NCBI GenBank assembly: GCA_039028615.1
Contig: JBCCHT010000065.1
Location: forward strand, 1 to 45,500
DNA from: Myxococcota bacterium
GTDB lineage: Bacteria; Myxococcota_A; Polyangia; Nannocystales; Nannocystaceae
Direction: 5' to 3'
Length of the DNA: 45,500 nt
A program made the translations under genes and the position numbers. Below are positions 2,171 to 22,034 of the stretch, piece after piece; the stretch's first letter is position 1, and every line of letters starts with the position of its first letter. The notes below the pieces were generated by a model. That model was given only the letters and a program-made list of their open reading frames with translations. It was not told the DNA's origin and did not search any database.

Positions 2171-4569
2171 TAGGCGATCCTCCGGGCGGAGCCCTTGTGC
2201 GGGGCGATTTCACCGGCGGCCTCACGGGCGCGTCGCTGCTCGAGCGCGGCAAGAACCTTGGGCGGCGTGAAGGGCAGCTCGTCCATGCGAACGCCCACCG
2301 CGTCGTAGATGGCGTTGGCGATGGCCGGGATGGAGGGATGCAGCGGCCCCTCCCCGGCCTCCTTGGCGCCGTAGGGCCCTTGTTCGTCGGGCGCCTCGAC
2401 GATGAGCGCCCGAAGCTCGGGCGTGTCGAGGAAGGTGGGAATGCGGTAGTCGAGCAGGCTGGGCGCGGGGTGAACCCCACGATGCTGCGGATCGACGATG
2501 TGCTGCTCCATCAGGGCCTCGGCGAAGCCCATATAGGCCGAGCCCTCCATCTGCCCCTCGACGATGCGGCGGGACAGAGCACGACCGCAGTCGTGGGCGA
2601 CCCAGATGGTCTTGACGTCGACGACGCCCGTCTCCTCGTCGACCTCGACCTCGGCCACGTGGGCGGTGAAGCTGTAGGCCGGCGACGCGCCGATGGTGCC
2701 GCCGCGATAGTCACCGTGGCGATCCTTGGGCGTGTTGTACGAGCCGACCTCGCCCAGCAAGCCGTGGTCTTCCTCGGCCATCTGAAAGGCCTCGGCGATG
2801 TCGATGTGCCGATCGGGATCCTCGATGTCGATCGCCTTGCGCTGCGCGAGCGTGACCCGACGCGCGGACACCTCCCAGCGCTTGGCCACCGACTGCCGCA
2901 CCTTCTTGCGCAGGGCCTGCGCGGCCTGCATGCAGGCGTTGCCCACCATCAAGGTGATGCGCGAGCTGTAGGCGCCGAGGTCGACGGGGCACAGGTCGGT
3001 GTCGGCCGACAGCACCCGGATGTCCTCGAGCGGCAGGCCCAGCTCCTCGCCGACGATGACCGCCAGCATGGTGTTGGACCCCTGCCCGATGTCGTTGGCC
3101 CCCGAGAACACGCGAGCCCGGCCGCTGCGGTCGAGGCAGACCTGCACCGCCGCCTGGGGCATGTCGTTGGGGTAGATGGGGTAGTTGGTGCCCGAGATGT
3201 ACGTGCTGCCCGCGACGCCGAGGCCTCGACCGAAGGGCAAGGTGCCGCGGCGGTCCTTCCAGTCGCTCGACTCCTCGACGCGGCGCAGGCACTCGAGGAA
3301 GCCGTTGGAGCCGATCTGGAAGTCGTTGACCGTCTTGGCCCCGTCGCCCATGTCGTTGCGGCGACGCAGCTCGATGGGGTCGAGCCCGAGCTCGACCGCG
3401 GCCTTGTCGAGCTGCACCTCGATGGCGAAGCGCGGCTGCACGCTGCCGTGGCCGCGTTTGGGGCCGCAGGCGGGCTTGTTGGTGTAGGCGCGGCGGGAGT
3501 GGAAGCGATACGCCCCGAACTCGTAGGGCGAGCACAAAAGCTGCCCCGAGTAGTAGGTGGTGACGAGGCCGAAGCTCGAGTAGGCGCCGCCGTCGAGCAC
3601 GGTGCGGGCGTCGACCGCCTTGATCTTGCCCGTCTTGTCGAACCCGGTGCGGTACTTCATCCGCATGGGGTGACGGCCGCGGTGCGAGTAGAACACCTCT
3701 TCGCGGGTGTAGAGGATCTTGACCGGTCGCCCCGTCTTGTAGGCCAGCTTGGCCACGCAAAACTCGAGGTCGAAGGGCTCGCTCTTGCCTCCGAAGGCGC
3801 CGCCTAGCGGCGGCTGGATGACCCGGATGCGATGGGCGGGGATCTCGAGGACCTTGGCCAGCTCGCGGTGCAGGTAGTGCGAGACCTGGGTGGCGGACCA
3901 GACGGTGAGCAGGCCGTCGTCGCCCCCCGAGCCGCCCCGCTCGACGAACGCCACCGCGCAGTGCGGCTCGATGGCGGCGTGGGTCGTGCCCTCGAAGAAG
4001 TACTCCCCCTCGACCACCAGGTCGGCGCCCTCGATGCCGCCCTCGACGTCACCGAACTCGAGCAGGACCTTCTTGCTGAGGTTGCCCTTGCGCGAGTACG
4101 GGTTGATCTGGACGTCGGAGGCGAGCGACTCCTCGGGGTCGAAGAGCGCGGGTAGGACTTCGTACTCGATGTCGATGGCCGCGAGCGCCTCGTTGGCGGT
4201 GTCCTCGTCGATGGCCGCCACCGCCGCCACGCCGTCGCCCACGTGCAGCGCCTTGTCCACCGCCAGCGCGTTCTCGTCGGGTGTCCAGGGGATGATGCCG
4301 TAGGGGATCTTGAAATCCTGGCCGGTCACCACCCCGAACACGCCCTCCATGGCCTCGGCCCGGCTCGTGTCGATGGAGACGATGCGGGCGTGGGCATGGG
4401 GGCTGCGCTTGATCTTCCCGTGCAGCATGCCAGGAAGCTTGATGTCGTCGGTGTAGCGGGTGATTCCCCGCATGCGCTCCATCGCGTCGACCTTGCGATG
4501 GGTGCCTCCGAGCTGCCACATCTCGCGGCTCGCGTCGTCGGTCGAATCGGAGTGCGAATCGTCGGGCAT
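2170..4569 (-). CDS. hcrA: Molybdopterin-binding large subunit, xanthine dehydrogenase family (4-hydroxybenzoyl-CoA reductase alpha-like)
   Basis: RSPHAHARI, GGAFGGK, KRGHG, DIGQG, VEGQMEG, AKEAGE motifs; start placed at MPDDS (4569) because the longer ORF overlaps the small subunit gene. Confidence 0.8.
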   Translation of the reverse strand: MPDDSHSDSTDDASREMWQLGGTHRKVDAMERMRGITRYTDDIKLPGMLHGKIKRSPHAHARIVSIDTSRAEAMEGVFGVVTGQDFKIPYGIIPWTPDENALAVDKALHVGDGVAAVAAIDEDTANEALAAIDIEYEVLPALFDPEESLASDVQINPYSRKGNLSKKVLLEFGDVEGGIEGADLVVEGEYFFEGTTHAAIEPHCAVAFVERGGSGGDDGLLTVWSATQVSHYLHRELAKVLEIPAHRIRVIQPPLGGAFGGKSEPFDLEFCVAKLAYKTGRPVKILYTREEVFYSHRGRHPMRMKYRTGFDKTGKIKAVDARTVLDGGAYSSFGLVTTYYSGQLLCSPYEFGAYRFHSRRAYTNKPACGPKRGHGSVQPRFAIEVQLDKAAVELGLDPIELRRRNDMGDGAKTVNDFQIGSNGFLECLRRVEESSDWKDRRGTLPFGRGLGVAGSTYISGTNYPIYPNDMPQAAVQVCLDRSGRARVFSGANDIGQGSNTMLAVIVGEELGLPLEDIRVLSADTDLCPVDLGAYSSRITLMVGNACMQAAQALRKKVRQSVAKRWEVSARRVTLAQRKAIDIEDPDRHIDIAEAFQMAEEDHGLLGEVGSYNTPKDRHGDYRGGTIGASPAYSFTAHVAEVEVDEETGVVDVKTIWVAHDCGRALSRRIVEGQMEGSAYMGFAEALMEQHIVDPQHRGVHPAPSLLDYRIPTFLDTPELRALIVEAPDEQGPYGAKEAGEGPLHPSIPAIANAIYDAVGVRMDELPFTPPKVLAALEQRRAREAAGEIAPHKGSARRIA

Positions 4570-4601
4570 GGGCTTGGTCTTCCGGTGGGAGGAGAGGCGC
4601 T

Positions 4602-5153
4602 CTACTCGGCGGCTTGGCTCGGCGACGATGAAGCGTCGTTGGCCGACTCGGCACCGTCCCCGGCGGCCATGCGCTCGCTGGCCTCGACGACGGCGTCGAT
4701 GATCTTGGTGTACCCGGTGCAGCGGCACAGGTTGCCGGCCAGCGCGGACCGGACCTCGCCGTTGGACACCGGGCGCCCCGTCTTGCGCACGAGGGCCTCG
4801 GCGCTCATCAAGATCCCCGGGGTACAGAACCCGCACTGGGCCGCATCCCAGCGATCGAAGGCGTCCTGCAGCGGGTGCACCCCGCCCTCGCCCTTGGCCG
4901 CGAGGCCTTCGACGGTGGTGACGTCGCGCCCGTGGGCGTGGATGGCGAGGGTCAGGCAACCGAGCTGGGGCTCACCGTCGACCTGGACGGTACAAGCGCC
5001 GCAGTCACCCTTGTCACAGCCCTGCTTGCTACCAACGAGATCGAGCTGGTACCGCAGGACTTCGAGCAGAGTGTGGTGGGGCTGCACCGCCACCTGCACC
5101 GGCTCTCCGTTGACGCGAAGGCTCAGCAAAGTCGCAGGACTCGGCGATGACAT
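4602..5153 (-). CDS. hcrC: 2x[2Fe-2S] small subunit (HcrC/CoxS-like)
   Basis: GCDKGDCGACTV..GC and QCGFCTPG..GNLCRCTGY motifs; start MSSPSP. Confidence 0.85.
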   Translation of the reverse strand: MSSPSPATLLSLRVNGEPVQVAVQPHHTLLEVLRYQLDLVGSKQGCDKGDCGACTVQVDGEPQLGCLTLAIHAHGRDVTTVEGLAAKGEGGVHPLQDAFDRWDAAQCGFCTPGILMSAEALVRKTGRPVSNGEVRSALAGNLCRCTGYTKIIDAVVEASERMAAGDGAESANDASSSPSQAAE

Positions 5154-6633: not shown

Positions 6634-7905
6634 CTACTCCGACACGCAATCGTTCGGGGGCATGGCGTCGATCCACGCCCGCAGCAGCGCGATGCCGTCG
6701 CCGTGCACGAGGCTACGGCCCAGCAGCGGCATCATGTTGCCCACGTTCTCCGACTCGGTGCGGAAGATGAGGATCGACTCGTCGGCGTTCCCCGGCACGA
6801 TGTCGTAGTCGAGGTTGCCCGAGTTGCCGGCCGACCCCGGTGCCTTGCAGACGCCGAGGTTGAACTCGTCTTCGTTGTCCCAGTTGAGGAACAGCTGCGA
6901 CGAGATGCCCGAGACGCCTCTCGGGTTGTGACAGTGCGCGCAGTTGACATCGAGGTAGTCCCGCGCCGCCCGAACGAGCGTCTCGGGGTCGAGCTCGTCG
7001 ACCGGGGTGTCCGCGAAGCTGCGGTCGTCCCAGGTCTGGGGGACCTCGCCGATGGGCGGCAGCCCTTGCAGCACCCCGGCCTCCGCCATGTGCTCGAGCT
7101 GGTTGTCCCCGTTGGCCCCAATGCGGTTGAGGTTGCGCGGGTTCGGGCCGATCGGGGTGATGAACGTGTCGTCGCCCTTCTCTTCCTTCAGCTCGTGGCA
7201 CTCGGCGCACTGGTTCTTCTGCGGCACCAGGTAGTTCGCCGTCTGCTCCGTGCCCTCGGGATCGACGAAGGTCACCTGCCGGGTGTCGCCCTGCACGGTG
7301 AGCACCGCGTCGCCGAGCTCGTGATCCCACACGTAGGGCAGCGCGACCCACTCGTCCGGGTAGCGGAGGAGCACGCGGGTCTCGATGAGGTCGATCGCAG
7401 ACTCGGGATCGGTGAAGTCGGCCGGGAACATGAACGACTTCACGATGATCGTGCCCACCGGGTACTCGATCACCTGGTTGTCCGGGTACGACGGCTCGGG
7501 ATAGGTCGAGGTCTCACCCGGCGGGATGAAGATGGCTCGATCCTTGAGCGCGAAGTCGGAGAACAACGACGTGTTCATGTCGTAGGGAAAGACGTTCTCC
7601 CGGTACGTGATCTGAGAGCCGTCCCAGTCGAGCAGGCCGTACTCGGACAGCAGGTCGGGTGCGTCGCCCTCGGGATCGAAGCCCTGGGGCTCGGGCTCTC
7701 CGCCGGAGCTGCTACCGCCAGTGCTGGTGTCGTCCGCCGCCTCGCTGGTGGAACCGGTGGACGTGCTCCCGGCGGTGGTGCCACCGGAGGTCGAGCTCCC
7801 GGTGGCATCGTTGCTCGGATCGGCCCCATCGCCGTCCGAGCCGCAACCCCACCCGAGCAGCCCGATGACCGCCAAGGCCGCGGTTGTCGTGCTTCGGGTG
7901 ACCAT
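6634..7905 (-). CDS. SO2930-family diheme c-type cytochrome lipoprotein
   Basis: Lipobox GWG-C, S/T linker, LFSDFALKDR, PVGTIIVKSF, IETR, two CxxCH (CAECH, CAHCH), C-terminal MPLLGRSLVH. Confidence 0.85.
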   Translation of the reverse strand: MVTRSTTTAALAVIGLLGWGCGSDGDGADPSNDATGSSTSGGTTAGSTSTGSTSEAADDTSTGGSSSGGEPEPQGFDPEGDAPDLLSEYGLLDWDGSQITYRENVFPYDMNTSLFSDFALKDRAIFIPPGETSTYPEPSYPDNQVIEYPVGTIIVKSFMFPADFTDPESAIDLIETRVLLRYPDEWVALPYVWDHELGDAVLTVQGDTRQVTFVDPEGTEQTANYLVPQKNQCAECHELKEEKGDDTFITPIGPNPRNLNRIGANGDNQLEHMAEAGVLQGLPPIGEVPQTWDDRSFADTPVDELDPETLVRAARDYLDVNCAHCHNPRGVSGISSQLFLNWDNEDEFNLGVCKAPGSAGNSGNLDYDIVPGNADESILIFRTESENVGNMMPLLGRSLVHGDGIALLRAWIDAMPPNDCVSE

Positions 7906-9462
7906 CTAGTCCATGTCGGGCGGAATGATCGGCCCCGCCTGGAACTCGCCGCAGTCGAACGGAGTGAAGGGCGCGTCGGGCCGGTACAGATCGTCGAAGG
8001 TCCCGATGATCTCGCCCGCGTCGTTCAGCAAGCCGCCGATGTTCAGGCTCGCGAAGGTGGCTCCGTCGTTGGTGTCGCCCAGGCAGATGTGGTTGTCGTT
8101 GGAGTTCATCGCCGGGTCGGCGGGGTCGAAGCTGCTCTCGCCGATGGTGCCGTAGAGCAGCGAGTCGACGGGCAGGTTGGCGCCGTAGACGAAGGCCAAC
8201 AAAAGGCCCAGCTCCTGCTCGAAGGACGACAGCGTCGGGTTGGTGCCGCTGCCCGAGTGCGTGTTGTCGTGCACCAAGACGTTGTCGGTGCGGTAGCTGT
8301 AGACCAGCTTGCCGTCGGTAGGCAGGTCGAGACCGTCGATGTCGCCCACGACCTCGCCGACCGGGATGCCCCACGACTCTTCGTTGCCCTCGATCACCAG
8401 GCCGCTGATCAGCGCGATGTCCATGGTCGCGTTGTCGGCGTAGGTGTTGTTGAAGATCTCGACCCGGCGCGAGGCCATGGCGAAGGTGCCGGTCCCGACG
8501 GGAATCGCCTGCACCGTGCCGCCGGCCGCGAAGTTGGTCCGGTTGTTGTTGATGACGACGTTGTCGTGCACCGAGATGTCACGACCGAAGATCGGGTTGC
8601 CGGGCAGGTCGAAGATGAGCAGGCCGCCCGTGTTGTCCTCGGCGTGGTTGCCGTAGACGTCGGCGAACTGGGTGTTCTCGATCTCGATGCCCGCGACGTT
8701 GCCCATCGCGATGTTGTTGCGGACGATCGCGTTCTGACACTGGCCGACGTAGATGCCGGCATCGGCGGAGTTGTAGGCCTCCGAGTCCTCGATGAGGACA
8801 TGGTTGCTGCTGACGGGGTACAGGCCGTACGCGCCGTTCTTCGAGCTGCCCTCGGTCCGCCAGGTGGCCCGGACCCGCTGGATGGTGACGAAGTCGGAGT
8901 CCTCGACGCGGAGGCCGTCCTTCTTGGCGTCCACCAGGGCCAGATCGCGCACGGTGAAGCGGTCGCCCACCGCATCGAGGCCGTTGGACTGGGCGGCCTG
9001 CGAGGCGAAGTCGAGGATGGTGCCCATCTCGAAGTTGCCCTCTTCGCCCATGCCCTGACCACATACGGTGATGTCGTCGCCGCGGATCGTGACCTGGTTG
9101 TCGAGCTCGAACACGCCCAGGCCCAGGACGAGCGCATCGCCGTCCCCCATGGTGTTGGCGGCGATCTGCAGGCCCTCTTCGTCGTCGGCCGTGACCGCGT
9201 AGCAGGTGCCGGTCTCGAATTCGTCGCAGCTGCAGTTCGGGAAGTCGGCCGAGTTGTCGCCCGTGGTGCCGGACTCCTCGCTGCCCGCGGCCGTGGTGTC
9301 GCCCGGGTCCGTGGTCTCGGCGACCGCCGTGGTCCCGGTGCCGTCGGCAGAGGTCGTGCTGCCCGAATCGGCGGCCGGAGCCGAGTCGTCACCCGGGCAG
9401 CCGGTCGTCGCCAGAACACCGAGGGTCAACAGGCTGAGAACTGAAATCTTCGCTTGTCTCAC
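7906..9462 (-). CDS. Parallel beta-helix repeat lipoprotein (usual partner of SO2930-type cytochrome)
   Basis: NGAYGLYPV, DAGIYVGQ, GNVAGIEIEN, NTGGLLIFDLP repeats; lipobox TTG-C; GTG start at 9462 inferred; stop abuts the cytochrome start. Confidence 0.85.
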   Translation of the reverse strand: MRQAKISVLSLLTLGVLATTGCPGDDSAPAADSGSTTSADGTGTTAVAETTDPGDTTAAGSEESGTTGDNSADFPNCSCDEFETGTCYAVTADDEEGLQIAANTMGDGDALVLGLGVFELDNQVTIRGDDITVCGQGMGEEGNFEMGTILDFASQAAQSNGLDAVGDRFTVRDLALVDAKKDGLRVEDSDFVTIQRVRATWRTEGSSKNGAYGLYPVSSNHVLIEDSEAYNSADAGIYVGQCQNAIVRNNIAMGNVAGIEIENTQFADVYGNHAEDNTGGLLIFDLPGNPIFGRDISVHDNVVINNNRTNFAAGGTVQAIPVGTGTFAMASRRVEIFNNTYADNATMDIALISGLVIEGNEESWGIPVGEVVGDIDGLDLPTDGKLVYSYRTDNVLVHDNTHSGSGTNPTLSSFEQELGLLLAFVYGANLPVDSLLYGTIGESSFDPADPAMNSNDNHICLGDTNDGATFASLNIGGLLNDAGEIIGTFDDLYRPDAPFTPFDCGEFQAGPIIPPDMD

Positions 9463-9603
9463 TGAGAATCCATGGCGTGTGCCCTTGGTCCAATAGGGGC
9501 ACACACGACCGGACTATACACGAATTGCTCCCATCACCGGTCCGAAGGATTCCGCCCCACACGCGCTGCGAGTTCCCCGCACGCGCGCCGCTCGCGGCCG
9601 CGC

Positions 9604-11055
9604 TCAGCTCGCGCCGCTACGAAGAACGACCGCGGGGATCGTCTTGAGGATGATGGTGATGTCGAGCCACAACGACCAGTTGTCGATGTAGTCGAGGTCC
9701 ATCTGCATCCAGTCGTCGAAGTCGATCTGGTTGCGACCGGACACCTGCCACATGCCGGTCAAACCCGGCTTCACCGAGAGCCTACGACGCTGCCACGGCT
9801 TGTACTGATCGACCTCCGAGGGCAACGGCGGCCGCGGGCCGACCAGGCTCATGTCGCCCACGAAGATGTTGAACAGCTGGGGCAACTCGTCGATGGAGGT
9901 CTTGCGGATGAAGCGACCGACACCGGTAATGCGAGGGTCGCGTTTGATCTTGAACACGGGCCCGTCCATCTCGTTGAGATGCATCAGCTCGGCCTTGCGC
10001 TTCTCCGCGTCCATGACCATGGAGCGAAACTTGAGCATGGTGAACTTGCGGCCGTTGCGTCCTGCTCGGACCTGGCGGAAGAACACCGGCCCGGGGTCGG
10101 TGATGCGAATGGCGATGGCGGTCGCCAGCATGATGGGGCCGGCCACGATGATCCCGAACAGCGCCCCGCTGAAGTCCATGATGCGCTTGACCGCGAGGCG
10201 AGCCTCGCTGGTCGGCGTGCGCCGCAGGTTGAGCAGCGGGTAGTCGAAGCCCGAGACGTTGGCGATGGCCATGGTGCCCTTGGAGGGCACGGTGGCGGGC
10301 AGGTTGACCAGCACGTCCACGCCGCGGACCTCACACGAGGCCATGGCGTCGCGCAGGATTTCGGGATGCCGCCCGCCGACCGCGAACACGACCTCGTCGA
10401 CCGGCTGACGATCGAGCAGTGAAGCCAGGCTGCCCACGTAGCCGAGGTGGGGTCGGGCCTTGGCGTGACCGGACTCGCCGGGCACGCTGACGAACCCGAG
10501 GATCTTGATGTTCCACGGCGACTGGACGCGCAGCGAGTCGGCAAATGCGACGCCGCGATCGTTGGCGCCCACGATCACCACGCGGTGACCATCGTTGCCG
10601 CGACGGCGCACGACCTTGACCGCCTCCATCATCAGCACCCGCCCCAACATCAGGGCGGCCCACTGCAAGATGGCCATCATCCCGACGAAACTGCGCGAGA
10701 CGGAGTCGAGTCGGAACAGGAACACCGCCACCACGAGCAGGCCCAACCCGAGCGCCACCGCCCGGGCGTAGCGCCCCATCATGGTCCGGTACGAGACCCG
10801 AAAGTCACTGGTCCGACACCAGTAGAAGCTGATCCCCCACACGGCGGCCATGAGCGACAGCAGCTGGTAGTAGCCGGTCAGATCGCCCAGCGTGGCCACG
10901 TCGAAGTGCGGCACGTTCACCGCGATCCAGCCCCCCGCGTCGGCGTCGGTGAGCTGTTCTCGCAAGAAGAGGGCCGCCAGGAATGCGGCCGCGGACACCG
11001 TCACGTCGTAGACGATCAGGGCCTGCCGAAAGAAGACCGACTGTTGACGCCACAT
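9604..11055 (-). CDS. Priming polyisoprenyl-phosphate hexose-1-phosphate transferase (WcaJ/EpsZ-like sugar transferase)
   Basis: N-terminal TM helices, VVIVGA Rossmann-like domain, KRIMD, KFRSM, DPRIT..GRFIRKTSIDELPQL, SLVGPRP, KPGLTG.WQV, DLDYI. Confidence 0.92.
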   Translation of the reverse strand: MWRQQSVFFRQALIVYDVTVSAAAFLAALFLREQLTDADAGGWIAVNVPHFDVATLGDLTGYYQLLSLMAAVWGISFYWCRTSDFRVSYRTMMGRYARAVALGLGLLVVAVFLFRLDSVSRSFVGMMAILQWAALMLGRVLMMEAVKVVRRRGNDGHRVVIVGANDRGVAFADSLRVQSPWNIKILGFVSVPGESGHAKARPHLGYVGSLASLLDRQPVDEVVFAVGGRHPEILRDAMASCEVRGVDVLVNLPATVPSKGTMAIANVSGFDYPLLNLRRTPTSEARLAVKRIMDFSGALFGIIVAGPIMLATAIAIRITDPGPVFFRQVRAGRNGRKFTMLKFRSMVMDAEKRKAELMHLNEMDGPVFKIKRDPRITGVGRFIRKTSIDELPQLFNIFVGDMSLVGPRPPLPSEVDQYKPWQRRRLSVKPGLTGMWQVSGRNQIDFDDWMQMDLDYIDNWSLWLDITIILKTIPAVVLRSGAS

Positions 11056-11356
11056 GGAGAAGAAGTCGCCGTCGCTCCGAGGTCCGGCACAGCGCCGCCT
11101 GCGGGTTGCCCATGGTCGCACTCCAGGGCAAGGGGGCCAAGATGATCCGGGGCTCGCAGCGGTGCGCGTCGTCGCACGTTGACGCACCCCGAGGCCAGAT
11201 CTCGAAGCCGCGCGTTCATCATTTTTTCGTGCAACGACAACGAAGCAACGACGTCCGTCGTACCATGAGCCGTGGCCCGCACCACGGCGTCTCGCTCATT
11301 GCGCATTTGGCGGCGGCGCTCGATGTGCTAACCAAGACCCCTACCCGTCCCGGTCC

Positions 11357-13333
11357 ATGAATACTGGTCGTAGTGGAAAGACAGTGGTCCCTGGCTCTGC
11401 CGGCGGGCTCGACCAAATGCTGGAAGCAGCCGTCGGAGGGGCCCCCAACCCCGCGGCGTCGCATGCCTTTTTGCTCGTGCTGTCGGGTAGCGATCCAGGG
11501 CGTCTATACGTCCTCGAGCGCCCCGAGATGGTGATTGGCCGCTCTCGCTACGCGGACATCCCCATCAGCGAGCGCGCGCTTTCACAACAGCACTGCAAGA
11601 TCACGCGGCACGGCGAGCGTCATCGAATCTTCGATCTCGGCTCGACCAACGGCACCTTCGTCAACGACCTGCGCACGCAGCAGGCCGATCTCAAACCGGG
11701 CGACGTCATTCGCACGGGCGAGACGGTGTTCACGTACATGGCCGGCGGGCAGTCGGCGACCGCCGGGGCTGGCCCGGGGGTTCCCCCACCGCGCGCTCAG
11801 GCCCACGGAACGATCGAGCCGCCCGTGAGCACCGCGCTGGTGCGCACGGCCCCTCGCATCGATCCCCGGCCTCCGCCCCCCACCGCCGCGCTGGCCCGCC
11901 GCGCTCCGCAGCCGCTCATCACCGTGGCCGAGAACGGCTACGCCGGCTCGCCGCACTACCTCGAGGTCCCCGCCCAGACGGCGGCCGAACAGAGCCCCGA
12001 TCTGCTCGCGCGGATCCTGTGGGCGATCGATTTCCTCAAGCGCTACTGGCTGTCGATCCTGCTGCTCACCATGATCGGTGGGGGCGTCGGCGTAGCCTCG
12101 TACAAGTTCATCAAGCCGCCCGCCAAGGCCGAGTTCGAGATCAGCCTCGTCCCGCAGGCCAGCGACAACCCGGCCGAGCGGATGCGCCGTACGAACTTCG
12201 AGTTCTTCCGCTCCGCCAAGGACAACTTCAAGCGGCCGGGGCTCATCCACGAAACCCTCAAGCAGCTCGGCGAGACCAACATCTCGCCCGACTCCATCCG
12301 CGCCACGCAGGCGCAGCTCGAGTTCAACAAGGCCCGCGGCGGTCAGTACATCTACAAGGGCTCGTACACCGCCAAGACGCCCGACGCGGCCATCGAGTTC
12401 CTCAACGTCCACCTCAAGCTGTACAGCGACGCGGAGATCGAAAAGGCCCTCAAGGTCCTGCTGGCCGAGGTGGCGACGCTCGAGTCCCAGCTCAAGCAGG
12501 CAGAGGAGAAGCTCACCAGCACCACGCAGGCGCTGCTGGCCTTCAAGCAAGAACACATGGATGCCTTGCCCGAGCGCTCCGCCCACATCCTGGGCCGGGC
12601 TCTCGAGCTCGACAGCGAGCGCAGCCGGGCCATCAGCAACGTGACCCGCAGCACCTCCGACGCCCAGGTCGCCCGCAAGGCCCTGCGCAGCGAGGACCCG
12701 CTCATCCACGCCCGCATCGAGCAGTCGCGGCCCTACGCCGAGAGCATCACCGACGTCTCGCGTCGCCTGGCCGAGGCCGAGGCGCAGGGCAAGGGCCCCG
12801 AGCACCCCGAGGTCAAGCGCATGCTCGAGGAGAAGCGCACTCTCGAGGCGCTGCGCGACAAGGTCTTGCTCGAGGGCTCGGGCAGCAAGGTCATCAAGAC
12901 CAAGAACCCCGCCTACTCCAGCCGCCGCACCCAGCTCGACTTCGCCGAGGCGGCCCAGCGGGTGGCTCAGGCCGACCTCGCTCGCATCAACAAAGAGCTC
13001 GAGCAGTACGGCGGCCTCGTCGAGAAGCTGCCGCGCCTGCAGGCCGAGTACGCCGACCTGACCCGCAACGAAGCCGCGATGCAGCGGCAGTACAACGACC
13101 TGTTCCAGCAGCTCAACGGTACGCGGGTCCGCCTCGACCTCGAGCGAGCCCAGGCCGCCACCCGGCTCGACATCATCACCCCGCCCAACGTGGCTCCCGT
13201 CTCGCGGCTCAAGGAGCTGTTCATGCGCGGGGCCATCGGCACCTTCCTCGGCATGTTCATGGGCCTGGGCCTCGGGGTCATCCGCGAGCTGCGACGCTAC
13301 GTCGCCGCCCGGCTCGCCGCGGTCCGTCGCTAG
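11357..13333 (+). CDS. FHA domain fused to polysaccharide co-polymerase (Wzz/Wzc-type, no kinase domain)
   Basis: FHA motifs IGRS, SQQH, DLGSTNGTFVN; TM1 after FLKRYW; long coiled coil with PEHPEV; IITPP motif; Gly-rich TM2; short C-terminal tail. Confidence 0.8.
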   Translation: MNTGRSGKTVVPGSAGGLDQMLEAAVGGAPNPAASHAFLLVLSGSDPGRLYVLERPEMVIGRSRYADIPISERALSQQHCKITRHGERHRIFDLGSTNGTFVNDLRTQQADLKPGDVIRTGETVFTYMAGGQSATAGAGPGVPPPRAQAHGTIEPPVSTALVRTAPRIDPRPPPPTAALARRAPQPLITVAENGYAGSPHYLEVPAQTAAEQSPDLLARILWAIDFLKRYWLSILLLTMIGGGVGVASYKFIKPPAKAEFEISLVPQASDNPAERMRRTNFEFFRSAKDNFKRPGLIHETLKQLGETNISPDSIRATQAQLEFNKARGGQYIYKGSYTAKTPDAAIEFLNVHLKLYSDAEIEKALKVLLAEVATLESQLKQAEEKLTSTTQALLAFKQEHMDALPERSAHILGRALELDSERSRAISNVTRSTSDAQVARKALRSEDPLIHARIEQSRPYAESITDVSRRLAEAEAQGKGPEHPEVKRMLEEKRTLEALRDKVLLEGSGSKVIKTKNPAYSSRRTQLDFAEAAQRVAQADLARINKELEQYGGLVEKLPRLQAEYADLTRNEAAMQRQYNDLFQQLNGTRVRLDLERAQAATRLDIITPPNVAPVSRLKELFMRGAIGTFLGMFMGLGLGVIRELRRYVAARLAAVRR

Positions 13334-13435: not shown

Positions 13436-14752
13436 TCAGGTGCTCCAGAAGCTGCGGAACGCCACGTAGGTCCAGAACTCGAACTGCGGGAACGGGTTGC
13501 TGCCCGCCGAGGCCAAGTGCGGACCACGACCGGTGAAGATGGTCCCGAACTCGAGCGAGAGGCTCCGGCTCAGGGTGTAGGTGACCGGCGTCGCGAAGCC
13601 GATCGCCGTACGCCCCGCCGCCGGGTTATCGGCCTCCGTCTCCGTGGGGCTGGTCGGCGGCGTGTAGAAGCTGGCCGTGACGCCGGCCGTGACGTCGGGC
13701 GGCATCGAGAAGTTCACGCCGAAGCCACCGCCCACCAGCGGCAGCACCGAGCCCTGCACCGCGTCGAAATACGCCTGCGTGCCCATGTTGAAGGTGGTCG
13801 CGATCCGCAGTCGCGACCGCTGGAGCACGCGCCCGGACAGCAGGTAGTCCACCGTCGGCAGCACGGGCAGGCCCGAGGGCGCCGCGGTGTCCGAGGTCCG
13901 AGCGCGCACCTGAGACGTGAAGAACACGCCCAGGGCCAGCTGGTTGTCGAGGCGGGGCCGGAGCCGTCGCAGCCAGCGAACGTCGGTCGACGCGAAGGCC
14001 TGCGATCCGTTGTCGCCGAAGTCCGCGTAGCCGCCTCCGAAGGTCGTCGAGATGCTGTCGATGGCCGAGGCGGTGTAGCCGTGGCTGACGCCCAGGTTGG
14101 CCGAGGTCTGGTTGTAGCTGGTGCCGCCGCCGTCCTCGACCGGGGTGCGAATCAGCCGACGAATGGTGACGCCCGGCTGGATGGTGAGCGAGTGCAGCGG
14201 GCTGAGCCGACCGGTGAAGCCGACGCCCGCCGAGGCGCCACCTGTGACCAGGATGGGCGCGGTGGGGATCGACCCCTGGATGTTGCCCTCGCTGTCGACG
14301 GCGACGCCGTTGTCGTCATCGACCTCGCCGCCGCCGCTGCCGTCGGTGCCCAGGCGGGAGGCCTGGAGGCTGTAGTCCGACTCGCCGATGGTGCCCGCGG
14401 CCGTGCCTACCCAGCTCCAGCGCGTGTTGAGGTCACCGCTGTAGCGCCCGCGCACCTGGTGGAAGAACAGCGGCCGCCGCACCGTGGTCGATGCGAAGTA
14501 CTGCTGCGACATCACCATGAACATCTGCGGCGAGTACTCGAGCAGCAGCTGCCGGTTGCGGATGCGGTCGCCGTACTGAACCGTCGCCGTGGGCACGATG
14601 GACACGCGCGCGGTCGGGGCCGGATCGCCGCCGGACTGCAGCGGGGCGTAACCACCACGCAGCTCGACCGCGACTCCACCACTGAAGTCGACGGTCTTGG
14701 CCCACGGGTCGATGAGCAGGACCAAGCCCAGCAGGAGAGGGCTGGCGAGCAC
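13436..14752 (-). CDS. Outer-membrane beta-barrel protein, probable polysaccharide porin (EpsX/Wzp-like)
   Basis: Signal peptide, alternating amphipathic strands rich in G/S/T/F/Y, aromatic C-terminus YVAFRSFWST; directly downstream of the OPX gene. Confidence 0.65.
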   Translation of the reverse strand: MLASPLLLGLVLLIDPWAKTVDFSGGVAVELRGGYAPLQSGGDPAPTARVSIVPTATVQYGDRIRNRQLLLEYSPQMFMVMSQQYFASTTVRRPLFFHQVRGRYSGDLNTRWSWVGTAAGTIGESDYSLQASRLGTDGSGGGEVDDDNGVAVDSEGNIQGSIPTAPILVTGGASAGVGFTGRLSPLHSLTIQPGVTIRRLIRTPVEDGGGTSYNQTSANLGVSHGYTASAIDSISTTFGGGYADFGDNGSQAFASTDVRWLRRLRPRLDNQLALGVFFTSQVRARTSDTAAPSGLPVLPTVDYLLSGRVLQRSRLRIATTFNMGTQAYFDAVQGSVLPLVGGGFGVNFSMPPDVTAGVTASFYTPPTSPTETEADNPAAGRTAIGFATPVTYTLSRSLSLEFGTIFTGRGPHLASAGSNPFPQFEFWTYVAFRSFWST

Positions 14753-16029: not shown

Positions 16030-16890
16030 TCAGCCGTCGGCCGGCAGCCGGCGCACGACCTCAGCCACCTGCTCTTCCCACGCGGGCATGGGGCCGAGGA
16101 GTGCTTCGGTCGGGGCCAGATCCAACACGCTGTACGCGGGTCGCTTGGCGGGTCGCGGGAAGTCGGCGGTGGTGCACGGCGACACGACGCAGGCCGGGTT
16201 GACCTGCTCGATCACCGCCTTGGCGAGCCCATACCAGGTGCACTCGCCACCGTCGGTCACGTGCAAGGTGCCGTGCGCCTGTTGGCGGAGCAGGGCCAGC
16301 GAGGCCGACGCCAGGTGCTCGGCGCTGGTGGGCCGGCCCCGCTGATCGTCGACGACCGACAGCGACTCCTTGGTCTTACCCAGGCGCGCCATGGTCCGCA
16401 CGAAGTTGTTGGCCCAGGGCGCGTACAGCCAGCTGGTGCGCAGCAACAAGAACCGAACGCCGGACTGCTCGATGGCCTCTTCGCCCACCGCCTTGCTGCG
16501 GCCGTAGGCGTTCAGCGGCGCCCGCGGGTGATCGACGGCATACGGCGAGGTCGCGTCGCCCTCGAACACGTAGTCGGTGCTGTAGTGCACCAAGGTGGCG
16601 TCCATGGCCCGACAGCGCTCGGCGAGCCACCCCACGCCGTGGCCGTTGAGCACGGTGGCTTCGTCCTCATGCTCCTCGGCCCCGTCGACGTTCGTGTAGC
16701 CCGTGCAGTTGACGACGACGTCGAAGCCCTCGATGGGGAGCGCGTCGACGTGGGCGCGCTGGGTCAGGTCGAAGTCCGGGTAGCTGCGAACGTCGTGGGT
16801 CAGGCCCTCGCGCTGCAGCAGGCCGAGCCACGCCTGCCCCAACATGCCGTCGGGGCCCAGCACCAACACGCGTGGCGTCGCCGCGCTCAT
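16030..16890 (-). CDS. rmlD: dTDP-4-dehydrorhamnose reductase
   Basis: GPDGMLG, YTNVDGAE, STDYVFEG, YGRSK, VVDDQRGRPT, RPAKRP.YSVL; ATGA overlap with rmlC. Confidence 0.95.
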   Translation of the reverse strand: MSAATPRVLVLGPDGMLGQAWLGLLQREGLTHDVRSYPDFDLTQRAHVDALPIEGFDVVVNCTGYTNVDGAEEHEDEATVLNGHGVGWLAERCRAMDATLVHYSTDYVFEGDATSPYAVDHPRAPLNAYGRSKAVGEEAIEQSGVRFLLLRTSWLYAPWANNFVRTMARLGKTKESLSVVDDQRGRPTSAEHLASASLALLRQQAHGTLHVTDGGECTWYGLAKAVIEQVNPACVVSPCTTADFPRPAKRPAYSVLDLAPTEALLGPMPAWEEQVAEVVRRLPADG

Positions 16891-17450
16891 TGAGCGTCGG
16901 TCCAGCTCGGCAGGCGCTCGGCCGGGACTTCGGCCAGCGTCGGGAACGCGGCGTCCTTGGGCGACAGGGAAGGCTCGCTCACCGGCCACTCGATGCCGAC
17001 CTTGGGGTCGTTCCAGATGATGCCCATCTCGGTCTCGCGGTGATACGCCTCGGTGCACTTGTACGAGAACAAAGCGTCCTCGCTGGTGACGCAGAAGCCG
17101 TGGGCGAAGCCGGGCGGGATGTAGACCTGCCGGTGGTTTTCGCCGGACAGCGTGGTGCCGATCCACTCGCCGAAGGTGGGCGAGCCGACGCGCACGTCGA
17201 CGGCGACATCGAAGACCTCGCCCTGCACCACCTGGACGAGCTTGCCCTGACCGAAGGGATGCTGGAGGTGAAGCCCCCGCAGGATGCCCTTGGAGGACTT
17301 GGACATGTTGTCCTGCACGAAGTCGCTGGGCAGCCCCGCCTCTTGGTAGCGCTTTTGGGCGAAGGTCTCGAGGAAGAACCCGCGCGTGTCCGCGTAGACG
17401 GCGGGCTCGATGATGACGACGCCCTTGAGCTTCGTGTGCGTGACCTTCAT
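16887..17450 (-). CDS. rmlC: dTDP-4-dehydrorhamnose 3,5-epimerase
   Basis: [45 protein letters not shown]; start MKVTHT overlaps the rmlA stop. Confidence 0.96.
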
Positions 17451-18340
17451 CGACGAACCTCGTCCTGGCTGAGCAGGCCCTTGAGGTACTGACCGTAGGC
17501 CGTCTTGGCCAAGGCGTCGGCCTGCTCGGCGAGCTGAGCGTCGGTGATCCAGCCCTTGAAGAACGCGATTTCCTCGGGGCACGCGATCATCAGGCCCTGC
17601 CGATGCTCGATGGTCTGGATGAAGGTGGCCGCCTCGAGCAGCGCGTCGGGGTTCCCGGTGTCGAGCCAGGCAAAGCCACGACCGAGGGTCTCGAGGTGCA
17701 GGTTGTTCTGCTCGAGGTACACGCGGTTGAGGTCGGTGATCTCGAGCTCGCCGCGCGCGGAGGGCTTGAGCGAGCTGGCCAGCTCGCAGACCTGCTCGTC
17801 GTAGAAGTAAAGGCCGGTGACCGCGTAGTTCGAGCGAGGCTTGGCCGGCTTCTCCTCGATGGTGAGGACCTTGCCGTCGTCGTCGATCTCGGCCACGCCG
17901 TAGATCTCGGGGTTCTTCACCCAGTAGCCGAAGACGGTGGCGCCCTGCTTGCGCGAGGCGGCCCGGCCGACGATGGTCTGCAGCTCGTTGCCGTAGAAGA
18001 TGTTGTCGCCCAGCACCAGGGCGCAGGGCTCGGTGCCGCCGCCCGCGAAGGGCTTGCCGATGATGAAGGCCTGCGCGAGGCCGTCGGGGCTCGGCTGCAC
18101 CTCCCAGGTGATTTCCACGCCCCACTGCGAGCCGTCGCCCAGCGTGCGCTGGAACATCGACTGCTCGTGCGGGGTGGTGATGATGAGGATCTTCCGAATC
18201 CCGGCCAGCATCAGCGTGGTCAGGGGGTAGTAGATCATCGGCTTGTCGTAGATGGGCATGAGCTGCTTGCTCACGCCCTTCGTCAGGGGATGCAGTCGCG
18301 TCCCCGAGCCGCCCGCCAGGATGATTCCCTTTTCGATCAT
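17447..18340 (-). CDS. rmlA: Glucose-1-phosphate thymidylyltransferase
   Basis: [57 protein letters not shown]. Confidence 0.97.
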
Positions 18341-18349
18341 GTCAGCCCC

Positions 18350-19396
18350 TCAGCCCCGGTTGTCGTAGTTTTTCTCGATCCAGTTGCGATACTCGCCGGT
18401 CCGCACCTGCTCGATCCATTCCGGGTTGTCCAGGTACCACTTGATGGTCTTGCGTAGGCCGGTCGCGAAGGTCTCGGTGGGTTCCCAGCCGAGCTCGTTC
18501 CGGATCTTGGTGGCATCGATGGCGTAGCGCAGGTCGTGCCCGGGGCGGTCTTTCACGTAGGTGATGAGCCCCTCGAGCGAGTCCTTGGTCTTGCCCGTCA
18601 GGTCGGCCACGATGGCGCAGATTTCCTTGACGACGTCGATGTTGCGGACCTCGTTGTTGCCACCGATGTTGTAGGTCTCGCCGTCCTTGCCCTCGAGGAT
18701 GACCTTCCAGATCGCCTCGCAGTGGTCGACGACGTAGAGCCAGTCGCGGACGTTGAGCCCCTCGCCGTAGACCGGCAGCGGCTTGCCGTCGACGGCGTTC
18801 ATCACCATCAGCGGGATCAGCTTCTCGGGGAACTGCAGCGGGCCGTAGTTGTTCGAGCAGTTCGTGATGCGGGTCCGCATCTTGAAGGTACGCGCATAGG
18901 CCCGCACCAGGTGGTCGCTGGCCGCCTTCGAGGCCGAGTACGGCGACGACGGATCGTAGCGCGTGGTCTCGGTGAACATGCCGGTATCACCCAGCGACCC
19001 GTAGACCTCGTCGGTGCTCACGTGGTGGAAGAGCCCTTCCCCATCGCCCCAGTGCTTGCGCGCCGCCTCGAGCAGGTTGAAGGTGCCTTCGATGTTGCTC
19101 TGGATGAACGCCCGCGGCCCGGAGATGCTGCGATCGACGTGGCTCTCGGCGGCGAAGTGCACGACGAGCTCCGGTTTGTGCTCGGTGAACACCTTGTCGA
19201 CGGCCTCGAAGTCCACGATATCGACGACCTCGAGCTTGTAGTTATCCGCCTTGGCGACCGATTCGAGGCTGCCGAGGTTGGCCGCATACGTGAGCTTGTC
19301 CAAGTTGATGAACGTGTGCTCCGGATGCTTGGGAACGAGGTGGTTGAGGAAGTTGGCACCGATGAAACCGGCGCCTCCAGTCACGAGGATCTTCAT
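18350..19396 (-). CDS. rmlB: dTDP-glucose 4,6-dehydratase
   Basis: [57 protein letters not shown]. Confidence 0.97.
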
Positions 19397-19770: not shown

Positions 19771-20130
19771 TTAGCCGTCGGCCTTGGCGTCAGCCGCCTT
19801 GGCGTCGGCAGCCGGGGCCGCGCCGCCGTCAGCCTTGGCGTCGGCAGCCGGGGCCGCGCCGCCGTCAGCCTTGGCGTCGGCAGCCGGGGCCGCGCCACCG
19901 TCGGCGGCCGGGGCCGCGCCACCGTCAGCGGCGGGGGCATCAGCCTTCTTGTCGTCGGCCTTCTTGTCGTCGGCCTTCTTGTCGTCAGCCTTCTTGTCGT
20001 CGGCCTTCTTGTCGTCCTTCTTCTTGGAGTCGGCCTTCTTGTCGTCCTTCTTCTCCTCCTTCTTGTCGCAGGCAGCGACACCGAGGGACAGAGACATGGC
20101 GAGGACGGTGAGGATGGTCTTGTGAGTCAT
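19771..20130 (-). CDS. Small Lys/Asp/Ala low-complexity lipoprotein
   Basis: Signal peptide with VAA-C lipobox, GGAG upstream, mature part made only of KKADD and ADGGAAPA repeats. Confidence 0.85.
   Translation of the reverse strand: MTHKTILTVLAMSLSLGVAACDKKEEKKDDKKADSKKKDDKKADDKKADDKKADDKKADDKKADAPAADGGAAPAADGGAAPAADAKADGGAAPAADAKADGGAAPAADAKAADAKADG
19796..20017. repeat. Intragenic tandem repeats: 3x36 bp (19796-19903) and 5x15 bp (19943-20017)
   Basis: Units GCCTTGGCGTCGGCAGCCGGGGCCGCGCCGCCGTCA and GCCTTCTTGTCGTCN read directly. Confidence 0.9.
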
Positions 20131-20200: not shown

Positions 20201-21739
20201 TCACGAACCGGCCCGGCGCTCTCGGAGCGCCTTCGCGATGGTCGTCATGAGGGTCATGGAATCGTACGGCTTGTTGAGGAAACCGTATACGCCCGCCTTG
20301 CGCAGCTGCGATTCGCGCTCGCGCAGGACGTAGCCAGAGGAGATGATGACTTTGATGTCGGGGTCGAGCTCGACGAGGCGCTTGAATGCCTGTTCACCGT
20401 TGAGGCCGGGCATGTCGAGATCCAAGATGACGAGTTCGACTTTGTCTCGGTTGGCTTGATAAAGCTCGACCGCCTGCGCGCCGTCTTCGGCTGCGAGCAC
20501 TTCCACGCCGGAATGCTCCAAGACTCTGCGGGTTGCATAGCGAACGAGTTCTTCGTCGTCGGCCAACAGCACCGTGCCGCGCACGGGAGAGTAGTGGTCT
20601 TGGGTGACGCGGGGGCGTACGACCGGTTTGACCTGCGCTGCGGGGAGGTACACCCGGAAGGTGGTTCCGCCGCCACGCTCGCTGTCGACCTCGATGTGGC
20701 CGCCGTGATCTCGCACGATCACCGAGGCCGTGGCAAGCCCCAGCCCCGTACCTTTTCCACGGGGTTTGGTCGTAAAGAAGGGCTCGAAGATGCGGCTGCG
20801 GGTCTCCGGGTCCATGCCCACGCCCGTGTCGCGGACCTCGATGACCACGTATTGGCCCGGCGCCAGCAAGGGGGCGCCTTCCTTCTCTTCGTAAATTGCC
20901 TGTCGTTTCGCGGCGATGGTCAGCGTGCCGCCCTCGGGCATCGCATCCCCCGCGTTGATGCACAGGTTCATCAGGACCTGGAGCAGCTGCGAGGGGTCGC
21001 CGATGAGCGTCAGGCCGGCCGGGGCCTCGGTGACCAGAGTGATCGAGCGATGGAGCGTGGCTCGCAGAAGCCGCGTCGCGTCCCCGATCATCGTCGAGGC
21101 GTCGGTCGCCTTGTGCTGGCGCCGGCTGCTGCGGGCGAAGGCCAGGAGCTGATTGGTCAGGTCGACGGCACGGCGCGCCGCGGTCTCGACCTCGGCCAGG
21201 GACTTCCGGGTCACCGCTTCCTCGAGCCGGTCGAGGCTCAACAGGTGGGTGATGTTGGCGAGCACGACGCCGAGCAGGTTGTTGAAGTCGTGCGCAATGC
21301 CGCCGGCCAGCTGGCCCAGCGCCTGGAGCTTTTGCGCCTGGATGCGCTGGTCTTCGAAGCGGTCGCGGCTGGCGAAGAGCAGGATGGTCTGCGAGCCGAC
21401 GGCGATTTTGTCGCCGAACTGGAGCACGCTCTCGGTGATGCGCACGCCGTTGACATAGGTACCGTTGCGGCTGCCCATGTCCTCGACCTTGTAGGTCCCC
21501 AGGTCGGTGCGGACGATCCGGCAGTGCCGACGGGACACGCCGTCGTCGAGAATCTCGATCGGGCTCTGCGGCCCGCGGCCCAGCACCATCTCGTCGCCGA
21601 GCAGATAGCGGCGCCCCATGGCGTGGCCCACCAGCACGATCAGGTGGGCTTCGGCCCCGCTGCGCTTGTCGCCGTCCGCGATGGGCGAGTGACGACGGAG
21701 AGTCAGGGTCGCCGGATCGGTGTCTTGGTTGCCGGGCAC
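20201..21739 (-). CDS. Cytoplasmic hybrid histidine kinase: FHA-HisKA-HATPase-REC
   Basis: FHA (LGRG, SRRH, GSRNGTYVN); H-box IAHDFNN; NAGDAM; DTGVGM; FEPFFTTK; GTGLGL; REC LADDE, LDLDMP, KP; GTG start after GGAG. Confidence 0.92.
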   Translation of the reverse strand: MPGNQDTDPATLTLRRHSPIADGDKRSGAEAHLIVLVGHAMGRRYLLGDEMVLGRGPQSPIEILDDGVSRRHCRIVRTDLGTYKVEDMGSRNGTYVNGVRITESVLQFGDKIAVGSQTILLFASRDRFEDQRIQAQKLQALGQLAGGIAHDFNNLLGVVLANITHLLSLDRLEEAVTRKSLAEVETAARRAVDLTNQLLAFARSSRRQHKATDASTMIGDATRLLRATLHRSITLVTEAPAGLTLIGDPSQLLQVLMNLCINAGDAMPEGGTLTIAAKRQAIYEEKEGAPLLAPGQYVVIEVRDTGVGMDPETRSRIFEPFFTTKPRGKGTGLGLATASVIVRDHGGHIEVDSERGGGTTFRVYLPAAQVKPVVRPRVTQDHYSPVRGTVLLADDEELVRYATRRVLEHSGVEVLAAEDGAQAVELYQANRDKVELVILDLDMPGLNGEQAFKRLVELDPDIKVIISSGYVLRERESQLRKAGVYGFLNKPYDSMTLMTTIAKALRERRAGS

Positions 21740-22034
21740 GTGGCTCCCGAATGGTAACGCGGTCGGGGTCGGGGAGGTGACCCACATCTACCCACCTGGA
21801 CGACCCTCGAAAGAGGCGGTGGTGTCGCGACTCGTACCACCCTCGGGTTTCGGACGTCTAGTCGCCTTCGAGAGCCTCAGCGGGGTCGGGGAACCCCACA
21901 AACACCCCGCGAAACGGCCGTACAGGGGCGAAAACCAACGTTCCTTGCGCGCGCGATGTCCGAACAACCCGCTACGCCGAGCACGAGGCCGAGTTCGGGC
22001 CAGGTCGAGTCGTCGCCGCTGCTACCCTCCGGCC

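Follow-up and report, generated by a model that had tools for sequence, protein, structure and literature searches.

Polysaccharide co-polymerases (PCPs) of the PCP-2a type carry a fused bacterial tyrosine (BY) kinase with Walker A, A' and B motifs and a cluster of tyrosines, and Wzc of Escherichia coli works through such a tyrosine tail and kinase ring. PCP-2 proteins without a kinase of their own are also described: the PCP-2b type, which has a stand-alone active BY-kinase; EpsV of Myxococcus xanthus, whose N-terminal extension is 37 residues long and which depends on the pseudokinase EcpK in a manner described as phosphorylation-independent; and HfsA, which depends on the pseudokinase HfsB. 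How a PCP-2 protein is switched without an active tyrosine kinase is an open question according to the report on EcpK (PMC12004946). Here we describe a gene, within a stretch of 45,500 nucleotides from a Nannocystaceae genome (the window; contig JBCCHT010000065.1 of assembly GCA_039028615.1), that encodes a co-polymerase with an N-terminal FHA domain and no kinase. The initial annotation of this gene laid stress on the missing tyrosine kinase; that absence holds here, and in view of PCP-2b, EpsV/EcpK and HfsA/HfsB it is not by itself new. What does appear to be new, from sequence comparison, is a locus-linked clade of membrane Ser/Thr kinases that is tied to the FHA-co-polymerase by co-occurrence and correlated loss. 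We propose that Thr phosphorylation by this dedicated Hanks-type kinase, read by the FHA domain, switches assembly of the co-polymerase, a reading that we hold to be probable, with some reserve, and in which both the binding and its direction would follow the scheme set out below.

The open reading frame (ORF) encodes 658 residues, has a GC content of 0.90 at third codon positions and is a real gene; its parts are laid out in Table 1. Pfam PF00498 (FHA) matches residues 59-120 with an E value of 9e-17, and the canonical set of phosphothreonine-binding residues is complete (G61-R62, S76-x-x-H79 and N98-G99, on an 11-stranded sandwich). An AlphaFold2 model built from a 90-row alignment reached a predicted local distance difference test score (pLDDT) of 83, and in model comparisons the best FHA fold matches were OdhI, GarA and DgcB (Z 18-20), with OdhI at Z 19.6 and 1.3 root-mean-square deviation (rmsd) over 101 residues and the FHA domain of DgcB at Z 18.1. 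By its pocket residues and modelled fold the domain is of the canonical phosphothreonine-binding type, and binding is predicted. It would lie in the cytoplasm, because of the topology of Wzc and because no hydrophobic stretch occurs before residue 230.

The co-polymerase body is divergent. TIGR03007 matches residues 328-642 with an E value of 5e-23 and only 81 bits against a cut-off of 279, TIGR03017 (E 6e-9) also falls far under its cut-off, and neither Pfam Wzz (PF02706) nor GNVR (PF13807) matches the 658-residue protein. Because the sequence is divergent and the curated hidden Markov models (HMMs) stay below cut-off, membership in the PCP superfamily rests on fold and context. Residues 219-648 of the model superpose on residues 19-451 of Wzc (9r62) with Z 15.1 and an rmsd of 4.0 over 260 residues, and Foldseek finds Wzc (E 3.9e-9) and WzzE (E 1.3e-6); judged by the modelled fold, two transmembrane segments (TMs) around a periplasmic alpha/beta base with coiled coils, the protein is a PCP. 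TM2 lies under the Kyte-Doolittle threshold of 1.5 and was placed by a model helix (617-657) and the Wzc alignment. P610 of the Pro motif ahead of it and G632 within it are invariant, G636 and G640 nearly so. The tail, counted from an R-[DE]-x-RR motif, is 14-20 residues long in all 88 close homologues, no Walker A pattern occurs in the 658-residue protein, and a single Tyr follows residue 600. By sequence the protein falls outside PCP-2a. The initial annotation had seen an FHA domain with an intact pocket, a Pro-rich linker, a full co-polymerase body ending shortly after TM2, and neither Walker motifs nor a Tyr cluster; all of this was borne out, with the linker (residues ~131-215) being of low pLDDT in the model, the body resting on the Wzc-like model and a sub-cut-off TIGR03007 match and TM2 being weak by hydropathy.

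We were interested in how far this architecture extends. About 88 full-length homologues (44-73% identity) were found, whose titled genomes are those of the cultured Paraliomyxa miuraensis, of Nannocystaceae/Nannocystales or of unclassified myxobacterial metagenome-assembled genomes. A search with the body alone among representative proteins at 50% identity gave 131 matches at E values up to 1e-30; the best 150 representatives were examined, 22 whose co-polymerase N-terminal end was not covered were left out, and 103 of the 128 scorable ones carry the FHA domain according to a purpose-built profile, with all five pocket residues kept in 87 of the 103. In a sample of 73 genomes of the window's family the fusion occurs in 31, all-or-none by genus, and in a sample of 201 genomes of the class it occurs in 28, including members of two further families. 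Since 103 of 128 representatives at 50% identity carry the FHA domain, the fusion is, by these sequences, old; the FHA-co-polymerase is a real protein type, widespread on the same evidence within one class. The annotation had named an assembly artefact absent from relatives as one outcome that would undo it. An artefact or a chance fusion without function would be hard to square with genus-wide presence, the 87 intact pockets and a contig from an independent study that spans 9500-12391 and covers the FHA domain, linker and TM1; the homologue counts rule it out, its probability is practically nil, and we found no point in its support. Two genomes hold a second, displaced fusion paralogue with a degenerate FHA pocket (L186 in G199:C2 and L218 in G198:C676; G denotes a genome, C a contig, L a locus and P a 50%-identity representative protein), of which L186 has no export genes within 10 kb. 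A distant subgroup (P0092, P0249, P0256, P0258, P0266, P0268, P0269 and P0274) has a cytoplasmic C-terminal tail of 70-100 residues, and acidic Thr motifs in the tails of P0091 and P0092 could serve as FHA ligands.

A Ser/Thr kinase gene recurs beside the fusion. Among 25 named loci, a gene encoding a DUF4388 domain, a kinase domain and a TM stands behind the initiating transferase gene in 15; four of the other ten share the window's rearranged gene order and six have less than 3 kb upstream. Twenty more loci from three families contain a kinase in seven cases, five of them directly upstream of the fusion and on the same strand. When the linked kinases were placed in a tree with 69 other top-scoring kinase domains of the window's source genome (G000; 96.7% complete), all 21 locus-linked kinases and one of the ~370 kinases of G000 formed one clade (SH-aLRT 100), which held (SH-aLRT 96) after the addition of 24 candidates from other genomes, none of which joined it. 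Clade members differ in architecture. The G000 member (C75:3447-6827, locus L108) is a single-pass Hanks-type kinase on another contig than the window. The Gly loop, the beta-3 Lys, the alpha-C Glu, the catalytic Asp/Asn and the DFG motif are invariant in all 19 aligned clade kinases, which are of the non-RD type (H-C-D or H-G-D); by these catalytic residues the partner is a Hanks-type Ser/Thr kinase that is predicted to be active. Within the window's family a DUF4388 domain stands at the N-terminus of the partner kinase; the same domain is named in a preprint about regulators with a PATAN domain that bind the motor of type IV pili, a possible link to pili. The gene upstream of the G000 kinase resembles, judged in part by eye, a 2OG-Fe(II) oxygenase gene found near the kinase in L008 and L012.

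Kinase and fusion occur together. With clade membership set at E values below 1e-115 (the next matches in the family start from 1e-103), the clade kinase was found in 25 of the 31 fusion-positive family genomes and in none of the 42 fusion-negative ones, or by genus in six of eight and none of nine. All 18 genomes with the clade kinase in the class sample are fusion-positive. G218 entered the kinase-positive count through a partial match lying 4.9 kb away from the fusion, and rescoring of 84-150 candidates in each of 14 fusion-positive, kinase-negative genomes did not recover the clade kinase. Fisher tests are descriptive only, because kin are not independent. The state of the FHA pocket correlates with the kinase. 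Among 38 scorable gene copies (G220 and G158, truncated and with no FHA in the locus, were left out), kinase-positive genomes contribute 20, of which 19 have the pocket residues R, S, H and N intact and one, a displaced paralogue, does not; the pocket is degenerate in 14 of 18 copies from genomes where the clade kinase was not found. The co-polymerase tree needs four changes to account for this: three lineages lost both features, and the fourth change is a paralogue pair. The comparison suggests, at the level of sequence, that the kinase has assumed a control role which a bacterial tyrosine kinase usually fills.

Usual FHA ligands are marked by Thr specificity and a hydrophobic residue at +3. 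Candidate sites of this kind recur on both partners. The clade kinases have a juxtamembrane Thr in 18 of 20 cases and L, I or V at +3 in all 20, within an otherwise variable linker. On the co-polymerase, a T-x-x-[LIVM] motif 2-24 residues behind the FHA domain, mostly at 6-9 residues, occurs in 71 of the 103 FHA-bearing representatives against 22.6 in shuffled sequences (maximum 33 in 300 shuffles), the Ser version in 38 against 27.5; other FHA proteins of G000 have the Thr motif in 10 of 50 cases (11.5 shuffled). Further along its linker the window protein has T159 (T-A-L-V) and T176 (T-A-A-L). At the N-terminus, RTG[RKH]T is present in 56 of 74 close-family tails and in no shuffled ones (T9 in the window protein); the motif is doubled in many homologues and its codons vary synonymously across loci. 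T-x-x-[LIV] is not enriched in 95 wider-family N-terminal tails, and the RTGRT tail was accordingly rejected as a universal ligand. An L[DE]xxL[DE] helix before the FHA domain occurs in 25 of 95 representative tails (0.3 shuffled). A complex prediction of the kinase domain and juxtamembrane segment with the FHA domain, in unphosphorylated form, scored 0.01 and counts neither for nor against binding. In DgcB the FHA ligand is pT14, with V17 at +3 (PMC6733907).

Given that kinase-less PCP-2 proteins with a pseudokinase partner are already known, a stand-alone BY partner was sought. The genome search proposed in the initial annotation found BY-kinase domains in G000 only in two other, fused Wzc proteins and none standing alone; three weaker matches read as ParA, MinD-like and Mrp proteins, and no called ORF of 46 loci has a BY-type Walker A pattern. 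By sequence, then, PCP-2b is not represented in G000 by this protein. For pseudokinases we built an EcpK-like profile from genes for 164-residue proteins behind epsY/epsX-like genes in two genomes of the class. It recovers homologues in genomes of Myxococcaceae, Vulgatibacter and Labilithrix (four of five tested), has no meaningful PDB sequence match and no NCBIfam name, and gave nothing credible in the 73 family genomes or the fusion loci, nor, when widened, in G000. Two matches were rejected: a 38-residue fragment in G198 (E 0.002), short and without synteny, and 39 residues in an antisense ORF on C82 of G000, likewise without synteny and unrelated to the G198 fragment. EcpK-like genes, present in eight genomes of the class sample, do not overlap with the fusion; this comparison has no statistical power and was not used, because only about one overlap would be expected. 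The fused Wzc proteins of G000 (on C3 and C6) and its extra transferases lie apart from obvious export clusters, and its pathway genes are scattered.

These observations can be joined in the following scheme. The control module would be the N-terminal FHA domain, served by the dedicated single-pass kinase rather than by a BY-kinase or pseudokinase. On a signal, the kinase would autophosphorylate its juxtamembrane Thr (S-x-T-x-x-L; T926 in G000), and FHA domains of the co-polymerase would dock on this phosphothreonine at the membrane. The kinase would then phosphorylate a Thr in the cytoplasmic linker or N-terminal tail of the co-polymerase, and FHA-phosphothreonine contacts between neighbouring protomers would shift ring assembly, and hence polymerisation and export, taking the part that the Tyr tail and kinase ring play in Wzc. 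Phosphorylation more probably activates than inhibits, a sign favoured because of the analogy with DgcB and Rv1747. The idea in the initial annotation that a cytoplasmic FHA domain would let a Ser/Thr kinase act directly on the co-polymerase gained comparative support from the kinase clade, co-occurrence, correlated pocket loss and T-x-x-L motifs; the output may be chain length, export or kinase activity.

Several points weigh against this scheme. For 37% of positions in G000 a Ser/Thr kinase of some sort is no more than 6 kb away; against this background kinase adjacency alone means little, and by itself it was rejected as evidence. The locus in G000 is without the kinase, and the same is true of four close loci. 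The kinase profile was derived from the fusion loci themselves and 12-34 candidates were scored per genome, sister kinase clades occur in kinase-negative genomes, and the kinase and co-polymerase trees are quick trees. The juxtamembrane pattern, which 15 of 22 kinases of the clade share as against 3 of 60 further membrane kinases of G000, was defined after the sequences had been seen. The Thr motif close to the FHA domain is present in 17 of 30 close rows but absent from the window protein and part of its subclade, and the N-terminal motif, found in a single family, is not present in every member there. In G199, which is 95% complete, the pocket is intact but neither a profile nor a DNA search turned up the kinase; three further copies with an intact pocket and without the kinase come from genomes only 71-77% complete. 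The EcpK-like profile was named from synteny and the absence of Walker motifs rather than from a database match. At least ten genomes of the class keep the co-polymerase locus with a degenerate FHA domain and no clade kinase, from which it follows that the FHA module is dispensable for the pathway in some lineages. The correlated loss runs in the direction that the hypothesis predicts, though its roughly three independent lineages are few, and kin are not independent.

We entertained three other explanations for the same observations. The FHA domain may bind only the juxtamembrane phosphothreonine of the kinase, co-localising the two or letting the export machine regulate the kinase, with the real substrates elsewhere (the transferase, glycosyltransferases or regulators) and co-polymerase assembly constitutive. 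Co-occurrence and correlated loss fit such docking or reverse signalling equally well, no Thr of the co-polymerase is as well conserved across families as the juxtamembrane Thr (18 of 20), the absence of a proximal linker motif from the window protein points the same way, and lineages with a degenerate FHA domain retain the pathway genes; the Thr-specific and position-specific motif behind the FHA domain and the close-family Thr tail suggest, however, that the co-polymerase is itself a substrate, and we consider docking alone unlikely. The fold ranking raises another explanation, a switch like that of OdhI or GarA, in which the unphosphorylated FHA domain would regulate another pathway enzyme, for example the divergent transferase (a role like that of EpsW in M. 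xanthus), until phosphorylation of its own tail or linker closed the domain on itself and freed the target. The candidate self-ligand tails of the close family and the transferase as most constant neighbour agree with it, and no EpsW-like single-domain regulator was seen among the conserved locus gene clusters, for which no profile search was made. Top rank among FHA folds is no proof of function, however, and the proximal Thr follows the last strand at a distance of only 6-9 residues, a spacing that by general FHA geometry favours binding in trans; we regard this switch as quite improbable.

The remaining explanation is an ordinary bipartite PCP-2 system, in which the FHA domain would be an accessory input to a co-polymerase that has a divergent BY-kinase or pseudokinase still undetected or that borrows the kinase domains of the other Wzc proteins. 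The Arg-rich 16-residue tail does resemble the tail, 25 residues long with two Arg, by which EpsV hooks into EcpK, and the reach of the EcpK-like profile is limited, because it did not pick up the fused BY-kinase domains of G000 itself. The same profile nevertheless works across two classes yet yields nothing credible in the family genomes or loci, and BY-type Walker A patterns were absent from the called ORFs of the 46 loci. Membership in the pseudokinase-partnered PCP-2 group is unlikely, and a hidden BY partner of any kind is, in our estimate, very improbable. The preferred reading remains phosphothreonine-dependent switching of the co-polymerase through its own FHA domain.

The genes around the fusion place it in a pathway. 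Automatic gene calls in 26 loci, in which some genes were missed by the caller, clustered the fusion with the transferase in 22, a beta-barrel in 20, an OPX protein in 15 and rml genes in 15-19, making the transferase its most constant neighbour. The transferase scores above cut-off for TIGR03025 and below it for the EpsZ model, and shares 43-48% identity with EpsZ-like proteins from the same class. Compared with OpdQ the barrel model gives Z 20.2, and with AlgE Z 17.9 and an rmsd of 4.5 over 325 residues; it has no Pfam or NCBIfam match and none to the EpsX HMM, and an EpsX/AlgE-like role would fit it. The OPX protein matches the EpsY model with E 6e-37, below cut-off. With a short OPX protein and a syntenic 18-stranded barrel, the locus holds a composite short-OPX/beta-barrel export system. 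Among the 26 close loci 8 encode a Wzy_C-like polymerase, as do several loci from two further families (some below the Pfam cut-off); that of G000 lies on contig C7 rather than in the window. Wzx-like genes are present in the G000 genome, and a Wzx gene lies beside the fusion in L175. Because fold and gene context agree, it is well supported that the fusion serves as PCP-2-type co-polymerase in a pathway for a secreted polysaccharide, probably of the Wzx/Wzy kind, that exports through the composite channel. In five loci of relatives and three representatives the co-polymerase and the OPX protein share one reading frame, and the two are for that reason functionally tied. These frames have a third hydrophobic segment after TM2 that ends in a lipobox-like Gly-Cys, and are possibly polyproteins cut by signal peptidase II. 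All five genome-resolved examples have a degenerate FHA pocket, and the kinase clade was not found with them.

Other features of the window and its genome stand beside this pathway. Paralogous initiating transferases, 52-57% identical to that of the window, are encoded at G000:C3:75876-77039 and C19:130881-131945. The histidine kinase hybrid (Table 1), with an EspA-like N-terminus and a T-x-T-L-R stretch before its FHA domain, is a second phosphothreonine reader near the pathway. An ORF of 119 residues at 19771-20130 was rejected as a member of the system, being a low-complexity lipoprotein. Where relatives have the kinase, the window has a parallel beta-helix protein (TIGR03805) and a diheme cytochrome c (TIGR03806), both above cut-off (6634-9504, minus strand). 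Molybdoenzyme subunits like those of 4-hydroxybenzoyl-CoA reductase and xanthine dehydrogenase, below equivalog cut-off, lie at 1169-4959 (minus strand), and a DUF1592/1588/1595/1585 protein with a weak CBM60 match is followed by a DUF1552 protein at 25305-28964 (plus strand).

Table 1. Features of the FHA-co-polymerase gene, its neighbours in the window, and single-frame co-polymerase-OPX genes of relatives
Feature	Position	Strand	Evidence or remark
Initiating phosphoglycosyl transferase, WcaJ/EpsZ-like, divergent	9604..11055	-	PF02397 E 5e-71; probable start ATG at 11055
FHA-co-polymerase gene	11357..13333	+	FHA domain first, then linker, TM1, PCP-2 body (periplasmic, coiled-coil), TM2 and a short basic tail
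N-terminal Thr tail, residues 5-13	11369..11395	+	Family consensus R-T-G-[RK]-T-hydrophobic-hydrophobic-P-G; candidate self-ligand
Short helix ahead of FHA, residues 18-26, L-D-x-x-L-E type	11408..11434	+	Model helix
FHA domain, residues 36-130, pocket R62, S76, H79, N98 intact	11462..11746	+	Pfam, fold
Disordered Pro/Ala-rich cytoplasmic linker, residues 131-215	11747..12001	+	Model
TM1, residues 230-251	12044..12109	+	Hydropathy, model
Wzc/Wzz-type alpha/beta base in the periplasm, with long coiled coils, up to I-I-T-P-P 606-610	12110..13204	+	Fold
TM2, Gly-rich (~622-642), then a 16-residue tail rich in Arg and lacking a Tyr cluster or kinase	13220..13330	+	Model, Wzc alignment
Outer-membrane beta-barrel, 438 residues, ~18 strands	13436..14752	-	Model pLDDT 78, DSSP strand count
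Short D1D2-type OPX lipoprotein, EpsY-like, 216 residues	14774..15424	-	Poly_export and one SLBB; without membrane-spanning D4
dTDP-rhamnose genes rmlD, rmlA, rmlB	16030..19396	-	Gene annotation; rmlC present in 9 related loci
FHA-histidine kinase-receiver hybrid	20201..21787	-	Syntenic in 8 of 26 loci; pathway link only by position
Co-polymerase-OPX single frames	L175:8369-11113, L178:4597-7167, L180:8809-11688, L181:8896-11400, L185:8690-11191; P0231, P0245, P0252		

If the proposed switch holds, the very large Ser/Thr kinase network of myxobacteria would be wired directly into polysaccharide secretion. The family would offer a testable answer to the question raised for EcpK, with a named kinase clade, a reader domain, candidate Thr sites and, as controls, natural loss-of-function lineages; P. 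miuraensis is a cultured carrier, and the soluble parts are amenable to work in vitro. More tentatively, and at a little short of even chances, these proteins may form a further class, by mode of regulation, among Gram-negative PCP-2 proteins, one where a Hanks kinase and a co-polymerase FHA domain replaced the tyrosine autokinase cycle wholesale, with inter-protomer phosphothreonine-FHA contacts as the assembly switch of the trans-envelope export machine, and in which the pocket decays where the kinase is lost and some such lineages fuse the OPX protein. No description of an FHA-bearing co-polymerase was found in the open papers searched, including the main texts of four pathway papers, though supplements such as orthologue figures and tables could show one.

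Set beside described systems, the fusion shares with Wzc (7nhr, 9r62, 9r68) a two-TM body that aligns over its whole length and an OPX partner; it differs in having an N-terminal FHA domain instead of the C-terminal BY-kinase, Walker motifs and Tyr tail, at 13-16% identity. With EpsV and EcpK, which act with EpsY, EpsX and EpsZ, and with HfsA/HfsB, it has in common a kinase-less PCP-2 body and a short Arg-bearing C-terminal tail (PMC12004946, PMC9601211), and the exopolysaccharide locus of M. xanthus, as described in PMC9601211, likewise brings together a short D1D2 OPX protein, an 18-stranded barrel and a large transferase. The extension of the fusion, in contrast, measures 230 residues and contains the FHA domain, no EcpK-like gene was found in the genomes and loci searched, and a Hanks kinase is linked instead; strict orthology with the eps cluster was rejected, the EpsY and EpsZ models scoring below cut-off and the EpsX model giving no match. 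Hanks kinases are described as affecting Wzx/Wzy output indirectly, through PknB in Staphylococcus aureus and the Stk1-CcpS-CpsB route in Streptococcus suis, where they act atop an intact BY-kinase system by way of separate proteins; the available text of these reports describes no phosphothreonine reader on the co-polymerase (PMC6441080, PMC10148854). By analogy, the closest regulatory precedents would be Rv1747/PknF and DgcB. Rv1747 of Mycobacterium tuberculosis is, according to PMC3138270, a membrane transport protein with FHA domains, phosphothreonine sites of its own and an adjoining kinase gene, and is activated by phosphorylation, but it is an ABC transporter with two FHA domains and not a periplasm-spanning co-polymerase. 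DgcB of Bdellovibrio (6hc0/6hc1), which phosphorylation also activates (PMC6733907), and OdhI/GarA share the FHA fold and an N-terminal Thr tail with K at -1 and a hydrophobic residue at +2; their output is a soluble cyclase or the inhibition of an enzyme, whereas the tail of the fusion has Pro at +3 and is limited to one family. The FHA-co-polymerase, known here from sequence and models, can be likened to Wzc and EpsV in the periplasm and to Rv1747 and DgcB in the cytoplasm.

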